From IMG/VR virus record IMGVR_UViG_2778261069_000012, positions 1-30,877 of that record: a stretch of DNA of 30,877 nt; one strand, written 5' to 3'. Every line of letters begins with the position of its first letter. Position 1 is the first letter of the stretch. This DNA comes from a virus. Lineage: Duplodnaviria; Heunggongvirae; Uroviricota; Caudoviricetes. The position numbers were made by a program, and so were the translations under genes. The notes under the pieces were generated by a model. It was not told the DNA's origin, searched no databases, and worked only from the letters and a program-made list of their open reading frames with translations. Below are positions 9,915 through 20,170 of the stretch, in pieces.

Positions 9915-10748
9915 ATGAATATTACACAAGATAACTTAGACATTTTCACGGGGTCACATGTTGAAGTCTCCGTGTCTACTATGGTGGATAACCAGCCGGA
10001 CTTTTTCGATCCTGCATTTAGTCCTATCGAGAACATCGCAGCATTCCCGACGATAACCGAATCCACAGAGATCCAGACGTTAGAAGAGTATGATCAGGAC
10101 GCTACGGGGAAACTTGCTGGTTATCGTAAACTTGAATCAACTACGTTAGTAGTAAACCGTGTTCTGGATGACGAACATCAAGACATGTTGATGAAAGCGG
10201 TGAATGATAAAACTCCTTTACGCTTTCGTATGTTCTATGTTGTGAACTCTGGCTATAGTGCTGCTAACACAGGTTACTACGTCATTTTTGACGCTTATGT
10301 CTCGTCACATAAAACAAAATCCGGTGATAACAAAGTTACTACAATCGAGTTTAAATTAGAACCTGATGGCGGGATTCTAGATCGCGGTATTGCTACCGAA
10401 GGCCGGATCTTACGTCAAGGTGATTTTGGTTTGGGCGCTGGTGTACATCCATTCACAGGTCCGATTGATAGCGAAGCATTAGCCGGAAACCGTTTCGTAA
10501 CTTATCAGGGATCGAGCGTATCTAATCCATTTAGTGCTGATACTTCACTAATTCACGTTCAACCTAATGAAGATGGTGGATGGCAATTAACTTGCACCGC
10601 TTCCGGCGCACCACGTTTACGAGTTCGCACAGTCCAGAAAGACGGTAATTCTGGATGGGTGAAAGTGTATTCCACAGAAGAAAAACCGACACCAGCCGAG
10701 ATTGAAGCCGTTTCTATCCATGACCGGATCGACTTCGGGGAATACTGA
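9915..10748 (+). CDS. virion structural protein candidate (277 aa) with C-terminal KPTPAEI motif
   Basis: SD AAGGGGTAA; C-terminal EEKPTPAEIEAVS matches a motif in the downstream tail fiber; position just upstream of the fiber gene. Confidence 0.5.
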   Translation: MNITQDNLDIFTGSHVEVSVSTMVDNQPDFFDPAFSPIENIAAFPTITESTEIQTLEEYDQDATGKLAGYRKLESTTLVVNRVLDDEHQDMLMKAVNDKTPLRFRMFYVVNSGYSAANTGYYVIFDAYVSSHKTKSGDNKVTTIEFKLEPDGGILDRGIATEGRILRQGDFGLGAGVHPFTGPIDSEALAGNRFVTYQGSSVSNPFSADTSLIHVQPNEDGGWQLTCTASGAPRLRVRTVQKDGNSGWVKVYSTEEKPTPAEIEAVSIHDRIDFGEY

Positions 10749-10821: not shown

Positions 10822-13800
10822 ATGCAGTCGATCCAATTTAAACGAACAAATGTTTCTGGCAAAAAACCAACACCGGAACAATTACAGGTCGGTGAGGTAG
10901 CAATCAACCTTAAAGACCATGTTATTTTCACCAAAGACCGAGATCATGAAGTAGTTCAAATCTCTGTTTCTCCTGAAACTCACGCGGCACTAGAATCTAA
11001 AGTTGATGCTAACAAACAAGAATTGGATAGCACAATTGCAGTAAATGACCGCAATATTCACGCTAAAGTAGATGAAATTAAACAAACTACTGATGCAACC
11101 ATCGCAGCAAATCACGCAGAAATTAACAATAAAGTTGATGTAATTAAACGCGAAACCGACGCGACAATCGAGGCCAATAAAAATAAAGCTGCTTCCGATC
11201 TTGCTGGTGTTAAAGCTGAATTGTCGGATACCATCAACGCTAATAAAAATGCGGCTGCTGTAGCAACTCAGGAACTGGACACCCGCATCAATAAAAAAGT
11301 TGATGATATTAAATCCCGTACCGATGCAACCATCGTAAGCAATCACAAAGCAATCAATGACAAAGTTGATTTGATTAAGGCAGAAACTGACCGCACTATC
11401 GCAGCAAATCACGCCTATGCGGAAAATCAGTTAACTGACACCTACAATAACCTTACTGGTGTGATTGCAGCCAATAAGCAAGAGGCAGCGGATAACGTCG
11501 CAGCATTAACCCGTGATGTTGAAGCCAAAAATACAGCAATTCATAGCAAAGTTGACAATAACAAGTCTTACACTGATTCTGAATTGGCACGCTTAGAAAG
11601 CCGTATTGATGCAGCCGATGGATCAAGTGATGGTAAGTACATCAAAAAGCACGTAAACACTTGCACTGATGGCTATTTGCTGTCTAAGACCGCAAACCCT
11701 TTTGATGATCCGAGTGCTCTTAATCTTGATTACTTTGGTGCATTTCGCATGAATGACCTGGCGGGTCATATTGCAATGATCTTGCATGTTCCGCACCCAT
11801 CCGGCGTTAATCATGCTCGTGGTTTTGAGTTCACTTATGGGTCTAATCCGGTTCATACGGTAAGAACATACGGCTATGATGAATTGGGACATTTGGCATA
11901 TTCTCACCGCATGTATCATGAAGGTGATAAACCTACTCCGGCTGAAATTGGCGCATATTCGAAAGCAGAAATTGACCGCCTGTTCCAGAAGACGCTTAAT
12001 TTTGGGATCGAGGGCGGTTGGTTTAAACTCGGTAGTTTAACACTGCCACAGCAACACGGTCGCACGGCTAAGATTCGTTTAGTGGGTGGTAACGGTTATA
12101 ACGTCGGACAGAATGGACAAGCCAATATTATTGAACTGGTGATCCGTTGCGGCAACAATAGCCCGAAAGGTGTTGTATTCAATGCGTATTATACTATTTG
12201 GTATTATGAACAACATTTTTGTGCAATTCCTACCGATGGTGATAATTACGATCTTTACGCTTACTATGGTGCACATACAGGATTTGTTTTAGCAGAATAT
12301 CAAGTTTCTTCCGGTGGTGTTTCTTTAAACCTGTTGGATACTCCTGAATACCTGGGCGGTGAAAAACCTGTTGCAGATGAAATTTTTGATGCTCTTAACA
12401 TTTCATCGTTCAATAACTTTAGCAACCGTGGAACGTTAAATTTTGGTGGAAACCATCAAGGTCAATATGACATTGAGCATTTGAACGAACAACCGACAAA
12501 TGCTAAAAAGATGTTGCGTCGCTTCCGTAGTTCTGCTCCTGCCACTATCTGGCATGAGACAGTTGATGATAACGCATATCGTCTTGCTACTGGATACGAA
12601 GATACAAATCAGGAATTATTGCTGACAGCAACATCCGGGTTACATGTCAAGAAATTAACATTGGATGGCGGTGTTACTGGAAATTCTGGTATTGATATTC
12701 GTCGAGGACCAAACGAATCAAGTCATTTTAATTTCATGGATTATCGCACTGGACAAGATGTTCGTAATGGTTGGTTTGGTTTTGGTGATGGAACAACCAA
12801 AGATTTTATTTGGTGGAACGATAACGGTCAAAACTCTATAAACCTGATTGAAGATGGTGAATTGCATATTACTGGCGGTAAAGGCCAGAAAATTGTAATG
12901 AATAGCGAAGTTGCATTATCTGAAAATGCTCGTTTGGCTGTTAAAGGTGGCAATTATGGCTTAATTTTTAGAAATGATGGCGTTGGCTTCCATATTCTTA
13001 CCACAGATCTCGGTGATTCATTTGGACCGTGGAATACTCGTAGACCATTCAGCTATAATTTTGCGGACGGTGGATTATATTTAGGTGGTACTGAAACTGC
13101 TCGTTGTTTGCATCTGGGAATTGATGGTAGCACTCGTCTCGAAGACAACCTGTTCTTTAAAGCTGGTTCTCGTCAATCTATGGACTATATGGAACTCGTC
13201 CATTGGGGGGCAAGCAATACAGGTCGAAATAACGTTTTAAGTCTTCGTGACTCAAAAGGATTTTTCGCAGAATTTGAACGATTGGGTGATGATACCATTA
13301 AAAACACCTTCTTCGGGAAACTTAAAGTTAATCGTGGATCTGACGCAATCATCATGAATGCCGAAAGTGGCGATTCGTCTATATATTTGTTGGGTACTTG
13401 TGCTGATAATAACAACTGGTATATCGGTAAAGGTGGTGCTGATAATGGATTAGCGTTCTATAGCTATGCTACTAATGCTGCTATCAATATTACAAACGCG
13501 GGTGATATCGCGCTAAGTCCGAAAGGCGTCGAAATGACTCATGTCAATAACGTTCGGTTCTATGTTCATGGTGAACGTTGGACTGCTAGCCAATCTGGAG
13601 GCTGGGGCGATCAATGGGGATTAGAAGCGCCGATATTTGTCGATCATGGTTATGTTGGACCAGATAGCTATTATCCAATTATTAAAGGAAGAAGTTTAAT
13701 CACCAATCAAGGGTATACAACTGCCGTCGATTTTGGTATGCGTCGTGTTCCTCAAAATTGGGGGCAAGCTATTATTCGTGTTGGATCTGCGGAGGCATCG

Positions 13801-14232
13801 CCAGCGGCTGGTCATCCTCAAGCTGTATTCGAGTTCCATCATGATGGTACTTTCTATTCTCCTGGTAATGGTAACTTTAACGATGTTTATATTCGTTCCG
13901 ATGGTCGTCTGAAAATTAATGTTGAAGATTACGAAGAAAATGCGGTGGATAAGGTAAATAAACTCAAAGTTAAAACCTACGATAAAGTTAAATCTCTTAA
14001 TGACCGAGAAGTTATAGGTCATGAGATTGGTATTATCGCACAGGATTTACAAGAGGTATTACCGGAAGCTGTTAAAACCGCAAAAATTGGTGGTCTTGAT
14101 AACCCAGAAGAAATTTTAACAATTTCAAACTCCGCAGTGAACGCGCTTTTAATTAAAGCGGTCCAAGAAATGAGCGAAGAAAATAAACTTCTTCGTGAAC
14201 GTCTTGCTGCAATTGAAGCTAAATTAGGGTAA
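10822..14232 (+). CDS. tail fiber protein with C-terminal intramolecular chaperone (peptidase S74-like) domain
   Basis: 1136 aa; N-terminal KKPTPEQLQVGEVAINLKDHVIF fiber-type motif; four 22-aa KVDxIKxxTDATIxANH repeats; C-terminal GHEIGIIAQDLQEVLPEAV ... LLIKAVQEMSEENKLL typical of self-cleaving fiber chaperone domains. Confidence 0.85.
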   Translation: MQSIQFKRTNVSGKKPTPEQLQVGEVAINLKDHVIFTKDRDHEVVQISVSPETHAALESKVDANKQELDSTIAVNDRNIHAKVDEIKQTTDATIAANHAEINNKVDVIKRETDATIEANKNKAASDLAGVKAELSDTINANKNAAAVATQELDTRINKKVDDIKSRTDATIVSNHKAINDKVDLIKAETDRTIAANHAYAENQLTDTYNNLTGVIAANKQEAADNVAALTRDVEAKNTAIHSKVDNNKSYTDSELARLESRIDAADGSSDGKYIKKHVNTCTDGYLLSKTANPFDDPSALNLDYFGAFRMNDLAGHIAMILHVPHPSGVNHARGFEFTYGSNPVHTVRTYGYDELGHLAYSHRMYHEGDKPTPAEIGAYSKAEIDRLFQKTLNFGIEGGWFKLGSLTLPQQHGRTAKIRLVGGNGYNVGQNGQANIIELVIRCGNNSPKGVVFNAYYTIWYYEQHFCAIPTDGDNYDLYAYYGAHTGFVLAEYQVSSGGVSLNLLDTPEYLGGEKPVADEIFDALNISSFNNFSNRGTLNFGGNHQGQYDIEHLNEQPTNAKKMLRRFRSSAPATIWHETVDDNAYRLATGYEDTNQELLLTATSGLHVKKLTLDGGVTGNSGIDIRRGPNESSHFNFMDYRTGQDVRNGWFGFGDGTTKDFIWWNDNGQNSINLIEDGELHITGGKGQKIVMNSEVALSENARLAVKGGNYGLIFRNDGVGFHILTTDLGDSFGPWNTRRPFSYNFADGGLYLGGTETARCLHLGIDGSTRLEDNLFFKAGSRQSMDYMELVHWGASNTGRNNVLSLRDSKGFFAEFERLGDDTIKNTFFGKLKVNRGSDAIIMNAESGDSSIYLLGTCADNNNWYIGKGGADNGLAFYSYATNAAINITNAGDIALSPKGVEMTHVNNVRFYVHGERWTASQSGGWGDQWGLEAPIFVDHGYVGPDSYYPIIKGRSLITNQGYTTAVDFGMRRVPQNWGQAIIRVGSAEASPAAGHPQAVFEFHHDGTFYSPGNGNFNDVYIRSDGRLKINVEDYEENAVDKVNKLKVKTYDKVKSLNDREVIGHEIGIIAQDLQEVLPEAVKTAKIGGLDNPEEILTISNSAVNALLIKAVQEMSEENKLLRERLAAIEAKLG
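11065..11430 (+). repeat. in-frame tandem repeats (about 22-aa units) in the tail fiber shaft
   Basis: Four copies of KVD(E/V/D/L)IK(Q/R/S/A)xTD(A/R)TI(A/E/V)(A/S)N(H/K). Confidence 0.6.
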
Positions 14233-14238
14233 TTGGAA

Positions 14239-14258
14239 AGCGGGGAGAAATCTCCGCT
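14239..14258 (+). other. stem-loop with GAAA tetraloop between the fiber gene and the paralog cluster
   Basis: AGCGGGGA-GAAA-TCTCCGCT (8-bp stem, one G.U); no U-tract. Confidence 0.4.
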
Positions 14259-14270
14259 AAGGATTCTTAT

Positions 14271-14567
14271 ATGGGATATTGGGTAAGTAGTGAAATTAAT
14301 ACTAAAATCGATGCTTTAAAATGGCATGTATTTGATATTCCTAACGGCTATGGTACTGCTCGTGCTGGTGTCGCTGTAATGCGTCATAATGCTGGTGGTG
14401 GGTGGTCTGATGCACATATTAACGTAGATGGTTTGACCGTTGCTCGTCGTCGTGGTGGGACCAATTGGGGATCTACTATAAATTCGTTTGTTCCTGCTGG
14501 CTGCACCGTCTCCTTTGGTTTAGGGGGTGAAGGTGGTGTTGAATATTTTAAATTCATGGAGTTTTAA
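14271..14567 (+). CDS. small FDIPNGW-motif protein, paralog 1 of 3 (unknown function)
   Basis: 98 aa; SD AAGGA; shares WxxFDIPNG(W/Y), Gly-rich core and C-terminal TVSF ... YFKF with the two ORFs downstream. Confidence 0.65.
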   Translation: MGYWVSSEINTKIDALKWHVFDIPNGYGTARAGVAVMRHNAGGGWSDAHINVDGLTVARRRGGTNWGSTINSFVPAGCTVSFGLGGEGGVEYFKFMEF

Positions 14568-14569
14568 TT

Positions 14570-14876
14570 ATGGCTGGATGGATAAATCAAAGAATGTCAA
14601 ACGCTATTAGTATTTGGGCTAATGGTGGATATTTTGATATCCCCAACGGCTGGGTTACTGATTCATGCGGAATTGTTTTTGCTCATATGGAAGCCATTAA
14701 CGGTGCTGGTGATCTTGATTCTGAATTGGCTGTAAATGGATTGATTGAATCAGGTCATCATGCTGGTGATACTGGGAGTTGGGGGCGCTAGTTCTTTAGT
14801 TGGCGCTGGTGCTACCGTTAGCTTTACATTGGGTAAAGGTAGTTTGCATTATTTTAAATTCAGGAGAATGCACTAA
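14570..14876 (+). pseudogene. small FDIPNGW-motif protein, paralog 2 of 3, interrupted by a +1 frameshift at a G5 run
   Basis: Frame 2 reads M...GDTGSWGR then stops at 14789-14791; frame 0 continues ASSLVGAGATVSFTLGKGSLHYFKFRRMH to a TAA at 14874-14876, matching the paralog C-termini; the shift maps to GGGGG at 14781-14785. Confidence 0.6.
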
Positions 14877-15178
14877 TGGCATTTTGGGTAGATGGCGCTT
14901 TGGGGAATAGGGCGGGTAAAGCAAATCAAGGATGGTTTGATATTCCTAACGGTTGGACAGCCGACGCTTTCGGGACTATTTCATTCTGTGCTCATTCTTC
15001 CGGTGGTGGCGGTGGTGACTCTGAATTGCTTATTCATGGTTTGTGTGTTTCTGGAAGCCATAAGGGTCATGATTGGGGACAGATTCATTCTTGTATTGCA
15101 CCGCAAGGGGCGGTAATTACCGTTAGCACAAATAGGGGGATCGCTCATCTTCGTTATAGACGTTTGAGCAACCGCTAA
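14876..15178 (+). CDS. small FDIPNGW-motif protein, paralog 3 of 3 (unknown function)
   Basis: 100 aa; SD AGGAGA; ATG overlaps the restored stop of paralog 2 (TAATG). Confidence 0.65.
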   Translation: MAFWVDGALGNRAGKANQGWFDIPNGWTADAFGTISFCAHSSGGGGGDSELLIHGLCVSGSHKGHDWGQIHSCIAPQGAVITVSTNRGIAHLRYRRLSNR

Positions 15179-15232
15179 ATAAATAGAATTACGGGTATGT
15201 GCCCTATTGTTTAAAATAGAAGGAAAAGAATA

Positions 15233-15703
15233 ATGACTACTAAATTTGATATTTTTTCTGGTGGCCTCGTTGGTCTGTTTCTGCATGAAGAAGTAACTAA
15301 CACCGATCTAGACAGTGAAAGCTATCTGGAAATTCCAGAATGTGCGGCTTTCCCGGAAACTGGTGTAGAACGTTCTACTGTCGATGTTCCTAACTTCGGT
15401 GGTCCGTATAACCGTAAGCTGGTTGGTCGTATGTCTGTACCGGATATCGAACTTTCGATCAACTACATGCCGGGTAACGAAGTACACGAAAAACTGATTA
15501 AAGCAACCGAAGACGGTAAGCGCGTACAGATTAAAATTGCTTACTACATCGACGCTACGAAAAAATCTGGTGTACATATCGCTTATAACGGCTTCCTGTC
15601 TAAAACTACCATGACTGGTGGTGAGGATGCTGTAGTAGGCCGTACCTTCACCTTTGTAGTAGATGGTGCTCCGGTTAAACAAGCTGTTTTCCAGAAACTC
15701 TAA
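15233..15703 (+). CDS. major tail (tube) protein candidate
   Basis: 156 aa; directly upstream of the chaperone-position ORFs and tape measure gene; followed by a strong terminator, as expected for a highly expressed structural gene. Confidence 0.6.
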   Translation: MTTKFDIFSGGLVGLFLHEEVTNTDLDSESYLEIPECAAFPETGVERSTVDVPNFGGPYNRKLVGRMSVPDIELSINYMPGNEVHEKLIKATEDGKRVQIKIAYYIDATKKSGVHIAYNGFLSKTTMTGGEDAVVGRTFTFVVDGAPVKQAVFQKL

Positions 15704-15712
15704 TATTATCTA

Positions 15713-15737
15713 GCCATCCTTCGGGGTGGCTTTTTTG
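15713..15737 (+). terminator. rho-independent terminator with UUCG tetraloop
   Basis: GCCATCC-TTCG-GGGTGGC followed by TTTTTT. Confidence 0.75.
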
Positions 15738-15785
15738 TTTCCAATTCTAAATAAACATATCTAATTAACTTAAGAGGAAACAATA

Positions 15786-16094
15786 ATGAATATTAATGAA
15801 ATGTTAGCCGCACTTTCTCCGAAACGCGAATCTCTGACCATCGGTGGATTTACTTTCTATGCTCGCCCTATGTCAGTAAAAGAATTTAACGAACATGTTT
15901 TCAATACCGATAAAGAAGACCGTGATGAACGTTCTATTCTTCGTTGTATTGAAGATGAAGACGGTAAGCCAGTATTTGAATCTATTGAACAAGTTAAGGC
16001 ACTGTATACTAACGTCCGCAGTGAATTAATCGGTTTGGTTGCTCAAGCGTCATTGATGCAAGATCCGGCGGTAATTGAAAACGAGGTAAAGTAA
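15786..16094 (+). CDS. tail assembly chaperone candidate (gpG-position)
   Basis: 102-aa ORF immediately upstream of the tape measure gene; assigned by position only. Confidence 0.45.
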   Translation: MNINEMLAALSPKRESLTIGGFTFYARPMSVKEFNEHVFNTDKEDRDERSILRCIEDEDGKPVFESIEQVKALYTNVRSELIGLVAQASLMQDPAVIENEVK

Positions 16095-16123
16095 ACCCGC
16101 TTCTGAATTTCTATTTCCGGCAA

Positions 16124-16465
16124 ATGATGAGATCGGGGCTTAGTAAAGATGAAATGGATAATATGCCAATCACTCTATTTTGGAAATTATACATTTTCGA
16201 CACCTACTTAGAACCACAAAGCCCCGCGTTTCATGATATGCAGAATGCGATGTTGCAATATTCCATGTATATGACGTCGCAAGGAATGACACGCGAAACT
16301 GCAAAGAAACTCAAGCCTAGCCAATTCCAATTAATTAGAGAAGAAAAACTCTTTAAAACTAAAGAAGAACTGGAAGAAATTGCACGCAAGAAAGAAGAAG
16401 AACGTAAAGCGGCAATGCTGAACATGTTTGATCCATCTTTGCTTGAGAAACTCAGAAGCGGTTAA
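16124..16465 (+). CDS. second tail assembly chaperone candidate (gpT-position)
   Basis: 113-aa ORF in the -1 frame relative to the previous ORF; weak SD; assigned by position only. Confidence 0.4.
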   Translation: MMRSGLSKDEMDNMPITLFWKLYIFDTYLEPQSPAFHDMQNAMLQYSMYMTSQGMTRETAKKLKPSQFQLIREEKLFKTKEELEEIARKKEEERKAAMLNMFDPSLLEKLRSG

Positions 16466-16476
16466 AGGGGTAATTT

Positions 16477-18906
16477 ATGACAAAACATATAGTAACAATA
16501 GAAGGGGATAATAAAGGGCTAAAGAGAAGTACCAATGAAGCCGCCGACCTTCTCGATAGTTTGTCTGAAAAGGCAAGTAATATTGATTTTGGTGGTGGCT
16601 TATCTGGTCTGACTGGATCTCTTCGTGGGATCGCTGGCTCTGCTGGTTTAGCTGCTGGTGGTATCGGCTTAGTTGCGACCGCAGTGGTTGCAGCCGCTAA
16701 AGCTGGCGCGGAATACGTTAAACAATATTCAGAAGTATCTAAGGCGACCGGACTCTCGATTGAATCCCTTCAAAGACTGGAAAAGGAATTTTCTGGTACT
16801 GGCCTAACAGTTGAAAAATTCGGTGATATCAACAAAGACACCTTAGATAAGATGGGTGATGCATGGGCTAACGGTGGTGGTATTGCTGATGACTTAGAAT
16901 CGGTTGGCCTTAAGTTAGAAAACTATGCTCACTTCATGACTGATCCGCAAGGTGGTATGAAAGCGGCGATCCAAGTGTTCTATGACATGAAGAAAGCCGG
17001 AAAATCAATGGCTGAAATCAAGTTCATGATGGAATCTTTAGCCAGTGATTCAAGCCATATGACCAGCCAGCTTGAGAAATATAATACTGCTCAAGAGGCG
17101 ATGATCGCTATTCAGAATCAATCTGTTAACGTCACCGAAGAAAACGCTAAAAAATATGATAAATTTTCTCAAAATATCAATAAGCTGGAAAATAACCTGA
17201 AAGGTGTCGGTATGACCATTTCTGGTCCGCTGGTTGATAGTTTAAACTGGTTATTTGACTGGTTTAATATTGATTGGGAAAAGAGTTCTCTATTCAGGGC
17301 ATTAGATCGACTGAATAAAGAAGGCAAGACCGCAACTGGCGGTATTCTTAACGCCAACCATAAAGACGCTCAAAAAATTATTGACAAGTACAATAAAGAA
17401 AAGCGTTGGAATAATCTGGCAGATTGGGAAAAGGCCGCGATCCGTGGTGCTGGTGTCGATCCTCGTACTGCTGGCTTTGATGTTGAAGGATTTAAGAAAC
17501 GTTTTGGTGATTCTTATAAGAAAAATGGCTCTCTGATTGTTGTCGATAACGGGGAACATCTAACCCGCAAGGCAGATCCTAACCGTGATTTGACTATACC
17601 AAATAAACCAGTAAGACCAGAATCATTGGGTAAGTCTGGTAATGAGAAGAAAGCCGAAGAAGAAGCACGCAAGAAAGCGGAAGAGGCAGCTAAAAAGGCT
17701 AAGGAAGCCGCAGAAAAAGCACAGAAAGCACGCGAGGATGCAATCAAGCGACTGAATGCACTTGATGTTAAATTGCAAGGGCAAGTTGCAGCGTCTATCA
17801 CTTCTCAAAATAGCCAGTTGCAAAACAGCTTAAAAGATGTGAACGACGCGTTAGCTCTGGGCTTAATCTCTCAGGAAGACGCAGCCGCGAAACGCCAGGC
17901 GCTAATCGATCAGAATACTGAAAACGTTTATAAAATGATGTTGGGTGCTGATCCGATTGATGCTCTGAATGCTTTAACACAATTGCAACAAATCAGGGAC
18001 AACGAGCTAGAAAGCCATAAACGGTTACTTGATGGTAAAGCTATCTCCTACGAAGAATATATGCGTCGTGTGAACGATACCGAGCAAAACTATTCTCAGA
18101 TTGAAAATTCTTTACAGGGAATGGATGGTTATAAAACCAATCAATTAACTAGTAGTTATGATTATCAAGACTCAAATAATCCGTTTGCTAAATTTAATGC
18201 AATCGATAAAGAGAAATCGGATGCTGAACAAGATTATAAGACCGATAAACTCAAGATTGATGGGATCACCGATCCGGCTAAACGGATGGAAGCATTAGAA
18301 AAACTCAATGAAAACCATCAAAAACGAATGGCTGCAATTGAGAAGAAATATGCTGATGCTCGCCAGTCAATAGCCGATGATATGTACGGCGGTTTTGCTG
18401 CTGCAATGACTCTCTTCGGGCAGGAAAACACTAAAGCTATGCAGATGGCTTTCAATGCTCATAAAGCATTCTCTATCGGACAAGCGACGGTGAACATGTG
18501 GACGGCTGCTACCGATGCATGGAACGATCCGACCAACGTCACCACAGGTCAAAAAATCGCGGCTGCTGCATTGGCTGTTTCTCAGAACATGGGGAACATC
18601 GCAAACATCAAGTCTACTAACGTTAGCGGTATGGCTCATGATGGTATTGATAACATCCCTCGTGAGGGTACATGGTTGCTTGATAAGGGTGAACGAGTAG
18701 TTGATCAGCGTACTAACGGTGATTTGAAAGACTTCCTTGCTGCTCAAAAATCAGGTGGTGGTAACTCTCAGCCGATTGAAGTTAATGCGCCTTTGAACAT
18801 TAACGGCAACGTTAATAGCTCAGACAAGATGGTCATGGATGCTATCAAACGTCACGCTAAGTTTGTTGCTCAGGCGATAGAAGACGTTCAGCGTCGTAAG
18901 ATGTAA
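16477..18906 (+). CDS. tail tape measure protein
   Basis: 809 aa; Gly/Ala-rich hydrophobic segment (GIAGSAGLAAGGIGLVATAVVAAAKAG); long coiled-coil-like regions (EKKAEEEARKKAEEAAKKAKEAAEKAQKARE); position between the chaperones and the tip genes; SD AAAGGGGTAA. Confidence 0.82.
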   Translation: MTKHIVTIEGDNKGLKRSTNEAADLLDSLSEKASNIDFGGGLSGLTGSLRGIAGSAGLAAGGIGLVATAVVAAAKAGAEYVKQYSEVSKATGLSIESLQRLEKEFSGTGLTVEKFGDINKDTLDKMGDAWANGGGIADDLESVGLKLENYAHFMTDPQGGMKAAIQVFYDMKKAGKSMAEIKFMMESLASDSSHMTSQLEKYNTAQEAMIAIQNQSVNVTEENAKKYDKFSQNINKLENNLKGVGMTISGPLVDSLNWLFDWFNIDWEKSSLFRALDRLNKEGKTATGGILNANHKDAQKIIDKYNKEKRWNNLADWEKAAIRGAGVDPRTAGFDVEGFKKRFGDSYKKNGSLIVVDNGEHLTRKADPNRDLTIPNKPVRPESLGKSGNEKKAEEEARKKAEEAAKKAKEAAEKAQKAREDAIKRLNALDVKLQGQVAASITSQNSQLQNSLKDVNDALALGLISQEDAAAKRQALIDQNTENVYKMMLGADPIDALNALTQLQQIRDNELESHKRLLDGKAISYEEYMRRVNDTEQNYSQIENSLQGMDGYKTNQLTSSYDYQDSNNPFAKFNAIDKEKSDAEQDYKTDKLKIDGITDPAKRMEALEKLNENHQKRMAAIEKKYADARQSIADDMYGGFAAAMTLFGQENTKAMQMAFNAHKAFSIGQATVNMWTAATDAWNDPTNVTTGQKIAAAALAVSQNMGNIANIKSTNVSGMAHDGIDNIPREGTWLLDKGERVVDQRTNGDLKDFLAAQKSGGGNSQPIEVNAPLNINGNVNSSDKMVMDAIKRHAKFVAQAIEDVQRRKM

Positions 18907-19517: not shown

Positions 19518-20170
19518 TGGCAACTATTCAGGAATCATTCAGCAAACTATGCACTAATCTGGACTTCATCGAGGTCTACAACGACCAGACAGGTCAGAAC
19601 GTGTCTAGATTGACGCTACCGCAGCTTTTTTCCACTGGATCGATGTTTCACATTATCGAAGTGATTACCGCGTCAGGGGACGTTCTACGGCTTACAGATG
19701 GGTACTTCGATTTGGACTATAACGGATTTACATATCTCGCAACGGGTGATTTTCTTCAAATCTCATCAAATACCGAAGAGAAGGAGATCAACAACAACGG
19801 GATTAACGTAACCGTTTCTAACGTTCGCGAGGAATACATTACCCTGATTCGAAACAAGCAATTCGATAAATCAGATGTGAAAATCGAAATGGTGTTCCTG
19901 AACCCTAACACGGGCAAGGTTGAAACAACTTACCCTGTTTTCCGTGGGGTAGTCGATTCCATCGGGATTAACATCGAACATGAAGATGATGAGTGTAAAA
20001 ACGAATCAGAATTTCAGCTTAATAGTATCTGGGAAGTTCTAGATAAAAACGCTCGTAGTCATGCCTCCGATGGTATCCACCGTTCCTATGTTGGAAACGA
20101 GAACGATCTATTCTTCTCAAGGACCGGGCGCTGGCAATCGGAAAGCAAGTGGCATTCATCGAAGAAATAA
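19517..20170 (+). CDS. minor tail protein (lambda gpL-position)
   Basis: Start at ATG 19517 (SD GGAGA; TAATG overlap with the previous stop) rather than the upstream extension at 19463; 217 aa, close to lambda gpL size. Confidence 0.5.
   Translation: MATIQESFSKLCTNLDFIEVYNDQTGQNVSRLTLPQLFSTGSMFHIIEVITASGDVLRLTDGYFDLDYNGFTYLATGDFLQISSNTEEKEINNNGINVTVSNVREEYITLIRNKQFDKSDVKIEMVFLNPNTGKVETTYPVFRGVVDSIGINIEHEDDECKNESEFQLNSIWEVLDKNARSHASDGIHRSYVGNENDLFFSRTGRWQSESKWHSSKK

Follow-up and report, generated by a model that had tools for sequence, protein, structure and literature searches.

A private homopolymer frameshift in the middle gene of a conserved trio of predicted C1q/TNF-like paralogs beside an S74-type prophage tail fibre

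Changes of reading frame at short runs of identical nucleotides are known from several systems. In the contingency loci of Neisseria, Haemophilus and Campylobacter, surface genes carry runs of G within the coding region that gain and lose single bases, and the known contingency tracts are typically 7–8 nt long or longer. In prfB, the RF2 gene, a +1 ribosomal frameshift completes the protein, and the site combines a Shine–Dalgarno-like element ∼3 nt upstream, a slippery P-site codon with a slow or stop codon in the A site, and a nearby stop. Homopolymer-slippage pseudogenes in bacteria and prophages show a gain of one base in a short run followed by a prompt stop, are private to one genome and have intact orthologues. 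Homopolymers are also a classic place for indel errors. Two protein systems are relevant as well. C1q/TNF domains include the C1q-like heads of phage tail fibres and BclA. The gp38 protein of T-even phages, which has glycine-rich motifs and hypervariable segments, is a fibre-tip adhesin in T2/T6/S16-type phages and an assembly chaperone in T4. The locus presented here was compared with these systems. Its frameshift is an ordinary, private homopolymer lesion in one draft genome and very probably no genetic switch; in nothing substantive does it differ from the homopolymer-slippage pseudogenes, its only unusual aspects being that it lies in an uncharacterised family and that the resulting stump is annotated as a normal protein.

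The window, i.e. the whole stretch of 30,877 nt that was analysed, represents a siphovirus-type prophage with genes for terminase, portal, capsid, tail tube, tape measure, tail tip, endolysin and a large serine recombinase. Exact look-up of the 73-aa product of the disrupted gene in 153 billion gene positions finds it on one contig only, PTRS01000044.1 (GCA_002965725.1; 35.1 kb). This contig, from a draft assembly of Escherichia albertii, equals window positions 11570–17791 base for base, with its positions 14832–14836 corresponding to 14781–14785 and its position 14822 to 14771 of the window. The tail-fibre gene of the prophage has a match to Gp34_trimer in Pfam and to the PHROG long tail fiber distal subunit (E 2e-125), in addition to the domain listed below, and its protein is 87.5% identical at the amino acid level to gp37 of phage KFS-EC. 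Three small genes lie directly 3′ of it, all equipped with a ribosome-binding site of their own. The features of this region are the following.

10822–14232, + strand: tail-fibre gene, 1136 aa, with a C-terminal Peptidase_S74 intramolecular-chaperone domain (Pfam PF13884, residues 1026–1085, E 5e-14)
14271–14567, + strand: paralog 1, 98 aa, intact, identical to WP_000542618.1 of the closest prophages
14558–14561, + strand: Shine–Dalgarno GGAG of the middle gene, 8 nt 5′ of its ATG
14570–14791, + strand: 5′ part of the middle paralog, 73 aa (72 native residues and one aberrant Arg), ending in GDTGSWGR
14771, + strand: private G-to-A change (GCT to ACT, Ala68 to Thr), 10 nt 5′ of the G run
14781–14785, + strand: G5 run, site of the 1-nt insertion, from the sequence and its alignment to relatives
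14786–14876, + strand: 3′ part of the middle paralog, shifted to the +1 frame, comprising codons 73–101 of the intact gene and TAA 14874–14876
14789–14791, + strand: premature TAG, a product of the frameshift, read from the sequence
14863–14866, + strand: Shine–Dalgarno GGAG of paralog 3, 9 nt 5′ of its ATG
14876–15178, + strand: paralog 3, 100 aa, intact, identical to WP_021515503.1, its ATG overlapping the TAA of the repaired middle gene
15233–15703, + strand: tail-tube-like gene, downstream limit of the fibre-plus-trio module (PHROG 158 major tail protein, E 4e-20)

In relatives, the counterparts of the last of these genes are annotated as phage tail tube protein. The cassette is flanked by two phrog_158 major-tail-protein genes (277 aa at 9915–10748 and 156 aa at 15233–15703), an arrangement that is kept in two Salmonella prophages. 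In a tail cluster of the siphovirus type, it is unusual to find the tail-fibre module between two such genes. Within its tail gene cluster, ETEC1703 carries an additional insertion of ∼0.9 kb (3153642–3154412), a homing-endonuclease-like gene for a NUMOD3 domain-containing DNA-binding protein, which is absent from the window (around 20118–20162).

Direct reading of the middle ORF, from ATG 14570 onwards, leads to GGT GAT ACT GGG AGT TGG GGG CGC TAG, where TGG (14780–14782) is codon 71, GGG (14783–14785) codon 72 and CGC (14786–14788) codon 73, followed by TAG at 14789–14791. The first-pass annotation, made from the sequence alone, had described a G5 run at 14781–14785 and a protein that ends in GDTGSWGR before TAG 14789–14791, and the re-read sequence agrees with it to the base. 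It agrees also on the continuation in the +1 frame (frame 0 of the window), which reads ASSLVGAGATVSFTLGKGSLHYFKFRRMH after the break and runs to TAA 14874–14876, whose final A doubles as the first base of the paralog 3 start codon, ATG 14876–14878. When one G is removed in silico, which had been predicted to restore a protein of ∼101 aa, a 306-nt ORF of 101 aa results, and its product is identical to WP_000929469.1, the orthologue from the closest prophages, at 100 of 101 positions. The 29 residues that follow the shift correspond to residues 73–101 of this intact orthologue with 29/29 matches, which excludes a chance resemblance. At the DNA level, alignment with G37-3, G2248 and ETEC1703 opens a 1-base gap precisely at the G run.

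The flanking genes had been taken for paralogs of the middle one, and all three are truly paralogous: their full-length identities in pairs are 28–37%, and a W...FxIPNG core is invariant among them. With values of dN/dS (Nei–Gojobori, distinct alleles) of 0.26 for paralog 1, 0.20 for paralog 2 and 0.16 for paralog 3, all three genes are under purifying selection. Their arrangement recurs in Salmonella prophages that encode proteins ∼50–60% identical, in the order tube-like gene, S74 fibre, three genes of ∼100 aa and tube-like gene. Across the genera, identities within the first, second and third position are 54–58%, 49–50% and 61–62%, versus 21–43% between positions. Because within-position orthology exceeds between-position identity, the triplication is old, the order is fixed and the copies have been separately maintained. 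This separate maintenance of each copy argues against redundancy. Judged by such conservation, the intact middle gene appears to be normally functional in the family. In paralog 3 of ETEC1717 and ETEC1718, one Gly of the GGGGGD loop is missing (99 versus 100 aa; segment 743–1042 of ETEC1717), which reflects the in-frame loss of 3 nt from a (GGT/GGC)n stretch.

The family is small. Clustering at 90% identity in 5.8 billion proteins gives 10 clusters, and clustering at 50% identity in 1.84 billion representatives gives 17; all members with a source name come from E. coli, Shigella or Salmonella. Comparison of the trio with Pfam, PHROGs, NCBIfam, PADLOC and PDB sequences gave no credible family match. 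Matches to designed ‘Pizza’ proteins among the PDB sequences were discarded as spurious since they cover only a short motif in the FDIPNG region, and so were two long repeat proteins found in homologue searches, which share only a short motif (in one of them, again in the FDIPNG region). Structural prediction was more informative. The AlphaFold2 model of the intact middle protein as a monomer (pLDDT 84, pTM 0.70) has a helix at residues 2–17 and seven strands that form a β-sandwich. Searched with Foldseek against viral models, it matches C1q-domain and tail-fibre head domains, a similarity at the level of the fold only. The intact middle protein is a predicted C1q/TNF-type jelly-roll β-sandwich, and for each of the three paralogs the prediction is an N-terminal helix followed by a small C1q/TNF-like β jelly-roll. 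Relative to C1q/TNF domains, including the C1q-like heads of phage tail fibres and BclA, the trio is shorter, with a barrel of ∼80 residues and seven predicted strands. Its proteins have no collagen stalk and stand alone instead of being fused to the fibre; matches in Pfam, NCBIfam or PDB sequences that would make them members of the superfamily at the sequence level are missing. Position and predicted fold point to a conserved fibre-associated accessory. A heterotrimer would be in keeping with the fixed 1-2-3 order and with the separate conservation of the orthologues at each position, and the trio possibly assembles with one copy of each paralog.

The frameshift would be severe for such a structure. 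In the model, strands 70–77, 82–89 and 91–99 lie across or beyond the break, so that most of the first and all of the other two are lost. The lost segment, i.e. the last two and a half strands, is also the most strongly constrained part of the protein, with a dN/dS of 0.145 for the middle gene 3′ of the frameshift site in intact alleles. As these strands are gone, a folded jelly-roll is not expected and the allele should be effectively null; the truncated product is, on the model, probably non-functional. The stop/start translational coupling of the middle gene to paralog 3 is lost as well, and polarity on paralog 3 should be limited because this gene has its own GGAG. The 73-aa stump is entered in RefSeq as WP_241957584.1, an ordinary hypothetical protein, with no flag for a frameshifted pseudogene.

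The same site was followed in 19 relatives, comprising 17 E. coli prophage copies (96–99.8% and 81–84% nucleotide identity) together with G37-3 (97%) and G2248 (81%), which are lytic, T4-like phages of the genus Krischvirus. In all 19 the middle gene is a single 306-nt ORF and the site reads TGG-GGN in frame, with G4 (Gly = GGC, GGT or GGA) in 17 copies and G6 (Gly = GGG) in two; G5 is seen in the window alone. The annotation of E. coli isolate 23 (NZ_OW848980.1) gives the middle gene (segment 454–735) a length of 282 nt, 24 nt less than elsewhere (93 aa, WP_265892397.1); its DNA contains the complete 306-nt ORF with the ATG, and the difference is one of annotated start site, not a lesion. Of 5,426 complete E. 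coli genomes, 56 harbour related prophages, and the full three-gene array is present in 22 of these. In exact look-ups, which count up to 1,000 contigs, the nearest intact allele is found on 950 contigs and other intact alleles on several hundred more (∼1,500 in total), and the truncated 73-aa product on one. A second out-of-frame allele is the −1 (G3) product of the commonest allele, a protein of 75 aa ending in ...SWALVL, which was found once, in E. coli (MFX1230820.1, on a 91-kb contig). Out-of-frame alleles thus amount to two singletons versus ∼1,500 contigs (∼0.1%), to 0/19 among the relatives and to 0/22 among the full-length matches in complete genomes. Exact DNA scans of metagenome contigs and of GTDB representative genomes returned no G5 allele; these scans are low in power and carry little weight, since the G4 control gave just 2 and 0 matches.

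This census bears directly on a slippage-prone switch, one of the three options left by the first-pass annotation. The G run would then be a contingency tract, and frequent slippage would toggle the middle gene and hence a property of the fibre. The same run has indeed been altered both ways in independent genomes, by +1 in the window and by −1 in MFX1230820.1, each as a singleton; a separate G run in paralog 3 has a +1 change in KFS-EC, and the genes, rich in Gly and Trp, contain several runs of G4–G5. The likeness to the contingency loci lies in a coding-region G run, in a probable surface or adsorption-related gene and in the presence of both +1 and −1 indels. However, the ancestral tract is G4 (17 relatives) or G6 (two relatives), and a tract of 4–5 nt falls below the ≥7 nt of contingency loci. 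Nor are its nucleotides conserved, as the tract is not preserved against synonymous interruption and the codon of Gly72 is GGC, GGT, GGA or GGG depending on the allele. The frequency of out-of-frame alleles is far under the tens of percent at real phase-variable loci, and eight other predicted +1/−1 products of the common alleles are missing from 15 billion proteins (exact look-up). A phase-variable switch is, on this evidence, very improbable. The same holds for a more elaborate proposal, by which the trio would form a C1q-like heterotrimeric cap or adhesin, with one copy of each paralog, on S74-type fibres, and indels at the short G runs would, rarely but heritably, switch adsorption or host range instead of simply reflecting decay; little credence can be given to it.

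Rescue at the level of translation would require a programmed or leaky +1 ribosomal frameshift on GGG-G at codon 72, by which a full-length protein is made from the G5 template. Several features of the site resemble prfB. If the P-site tRNA-Gly slipped from GGG to GGC, the wild-type sequence ...SWG-ASS... would result; an upstream Shine–Dalgarno-like element (GGGAG, 14774–14778) lies 4 nt 5′ of codon 72, which is potentially slippery, an in-frame stop follows two codons later and the +1 frame completes the protein. Re-pairing on GGG-G is possible at 2/3 positions, and re-pairing at CGC/TAG would be poor. In contrast to prfB, the arrangement is not conserved, since the split is found in no orthologue and each of these is one uninterrupted ORF of 101 aa. 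CGC, a common codon and neither a stop nor rare, occupies the A site, and the stop is placed one codon further, outside the A site of the slippery codon. A stimulatory structure is lacking too, as the downstream RNA shows no unusual structure (z = −1.26). With every orthologue in frame, an evolved recoding site is ruled out, and the GGGAG is coincidental because the intact alleles carry it too. Recoding at this site is therefore an extremely remote prospect.

What is left of the three options is a recent inactivating mutation or a sequencing or assembly error, and both stand. The former is favoured: it is rather probable that a recent slippage mutation inactivated a normally functional gene. 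In this scheme, replication slippage would add one G to the G4 run of codons 71–72 (TGG-GGC), and translation would stop two codons on, leaving 72 native residues and Arg as an unfolded product of a null allele. The G run is one of three homopolymers of at least 4 nt in the middle gene. Only two changes in the 1-kb array, the extra G and the G-to-A change at 14771, separate the window from PK8568 and ETEC1703, which are its nearest relatives. The substitution affects a residue, Ala68, that is invariant across all other middle-paralog orthologues, and only the window has Thr68; an intact protein with Thr68 is absent from 15 billion proteins (exact look-up). This private substitution in the same gene fits a relaxed constraint. 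Other independent lesions are known in the gene family, namely a gene fusion in KFS-EC with a +1 G, the −1 allele MFX1230820.1 and IS insertions adjoining the cassette. These insertions are IS4-family elements, IS421 and ISVsa5, found in or beside the tail-fibre gene just 5′ of the trio in 14EC017 (segment 1–46) and KSC64.

Alternatively, the strain may truly have G4 and an intact gene, the extra G, and perhaps the nearby G-to-A change too, being an artefact of the draft consensus. The allele is a singleton among ∼1,500 contigs and is known solely from an NCBI record; it is absent from the independent Logan assemblies, which hold most of the intact alleles. Both private changes fall within 14 nt in a G-rich stretch, and the remainder of the 1-kb array is identical to the nearest relatives; at a background divergence of 0.4%, a mismatch so close to the insertion has an estimated chance probability of ∼0.08. 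The −1 singleton MFX1230820.1, which also comes from an NCBI-only assembly, could be a like artefact. On the other hand, the extra G is the sole single-base homopolymer indel in ∼12.5 kb that are 98.7–99.6% identical to ETEC1703, and a search for other split genes across the 30.9-kb window found none apparent. The absence of other homopolymer indels and broken genes indicates that the assembly is not generally indel-prone. Moreover, if a short-read platform was used, errors at the consensus level would be expected at runs longer than G5; a literature search on PTRS00000000 and GCA_002965725 found no publication, reads or sequencing platform. Gene conversion from paralog 1 or 3, considered as a source of the clustered changes, was rejected, as GATACTGGGAGTTGGGGGCGC has no counterpart in either paralog. 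Collectively, an error of consensus is possible, though a minority reading, and we infer a real mutation with slippage as its cause.

The distribution of the trio among phages adds a further dimension. Among 50,697 phage records it is present in three, all of them Krischvirus (G37-3, G2248 and UPWr_E1), where it sits between gp37 and the holin gene t (G37-3, G2248). The gp38 gene adjoins the holin gene in most Krischvirus phages (PMC12032242). Thus, the trio takes the slot that is normally that of gp38, downstream of gp37 and upstream of holin t (PMC12032242). It differs from gp38 in the absence of a sequence match to any gp38 family (Pfam, PHROGs), in comprising three small genes versus one and in its predicted fold, a C1q/TNF-like jelly-roll; in addition, the gp37 that accompanies it bears its own S74 intramolecular chaperone. 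The accompanying fibres all terminate in this Peptidase_S74 domain. In the comparison with G2248, identity is ∼75% for the trio versus 39–50% for the fibre tip. A role of the trio as a receptor-specificity determinant that co-varies with the fibre tip was considered and is weakened by this result, the trio being much more conserved than the tip. On such sequence comparisons, the trio is probably not a hypervariable specificity determinant.

A segment of the window (12343–15194), which covers the distal half of the tail-fibre gene and the trio, is ∼97% identical at the nucleotide level to the Krischvirus phages KFS-EC and G37-3, and the remaining window has no near match in the 50,697 phage records. 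A shared segment of this similarity, with no match elsewhere, indicates that phages of very different types have recently exchanged a fibre-tip cassette. In KFS-EC (NC_055757.1, 98605–98928), the array has been reduced to one chimeric gene in which paralog 1 (to about residue 89) is joined to paralog 3 (from about residue 47). The fusion is in frame but out of register, lies at a GGTGGTG microhomology and has deleted the middle gene; a +1 G of its own (AAGGG to AAGGGG), followed by a stop, then cuts it short. As KFS-EC is a viable lytic isolate, the array seems to be dispensable on at least one host.

For annotation, which is where the frameshift chiefly matters, WP_241957584.1 is a disrupted copy of a conserved gene of 101 aa. 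If the mutation is real, the tail fibre of this prophage may be short of one of three conserved accessory subunits. Of broader value is a very narrow, uncharacterised family of three ancient C1q/TNF-like paralogs in fixed order that travel with S74-type tail fibres. The shared cassettes suggest that the trio passes from temperate siphovirus-like prophages to lytic, T4-like phages of the genus Krischvirus, in which it would replace gp38, or the other way round, and it is a reasonable target for structural and host-range work.
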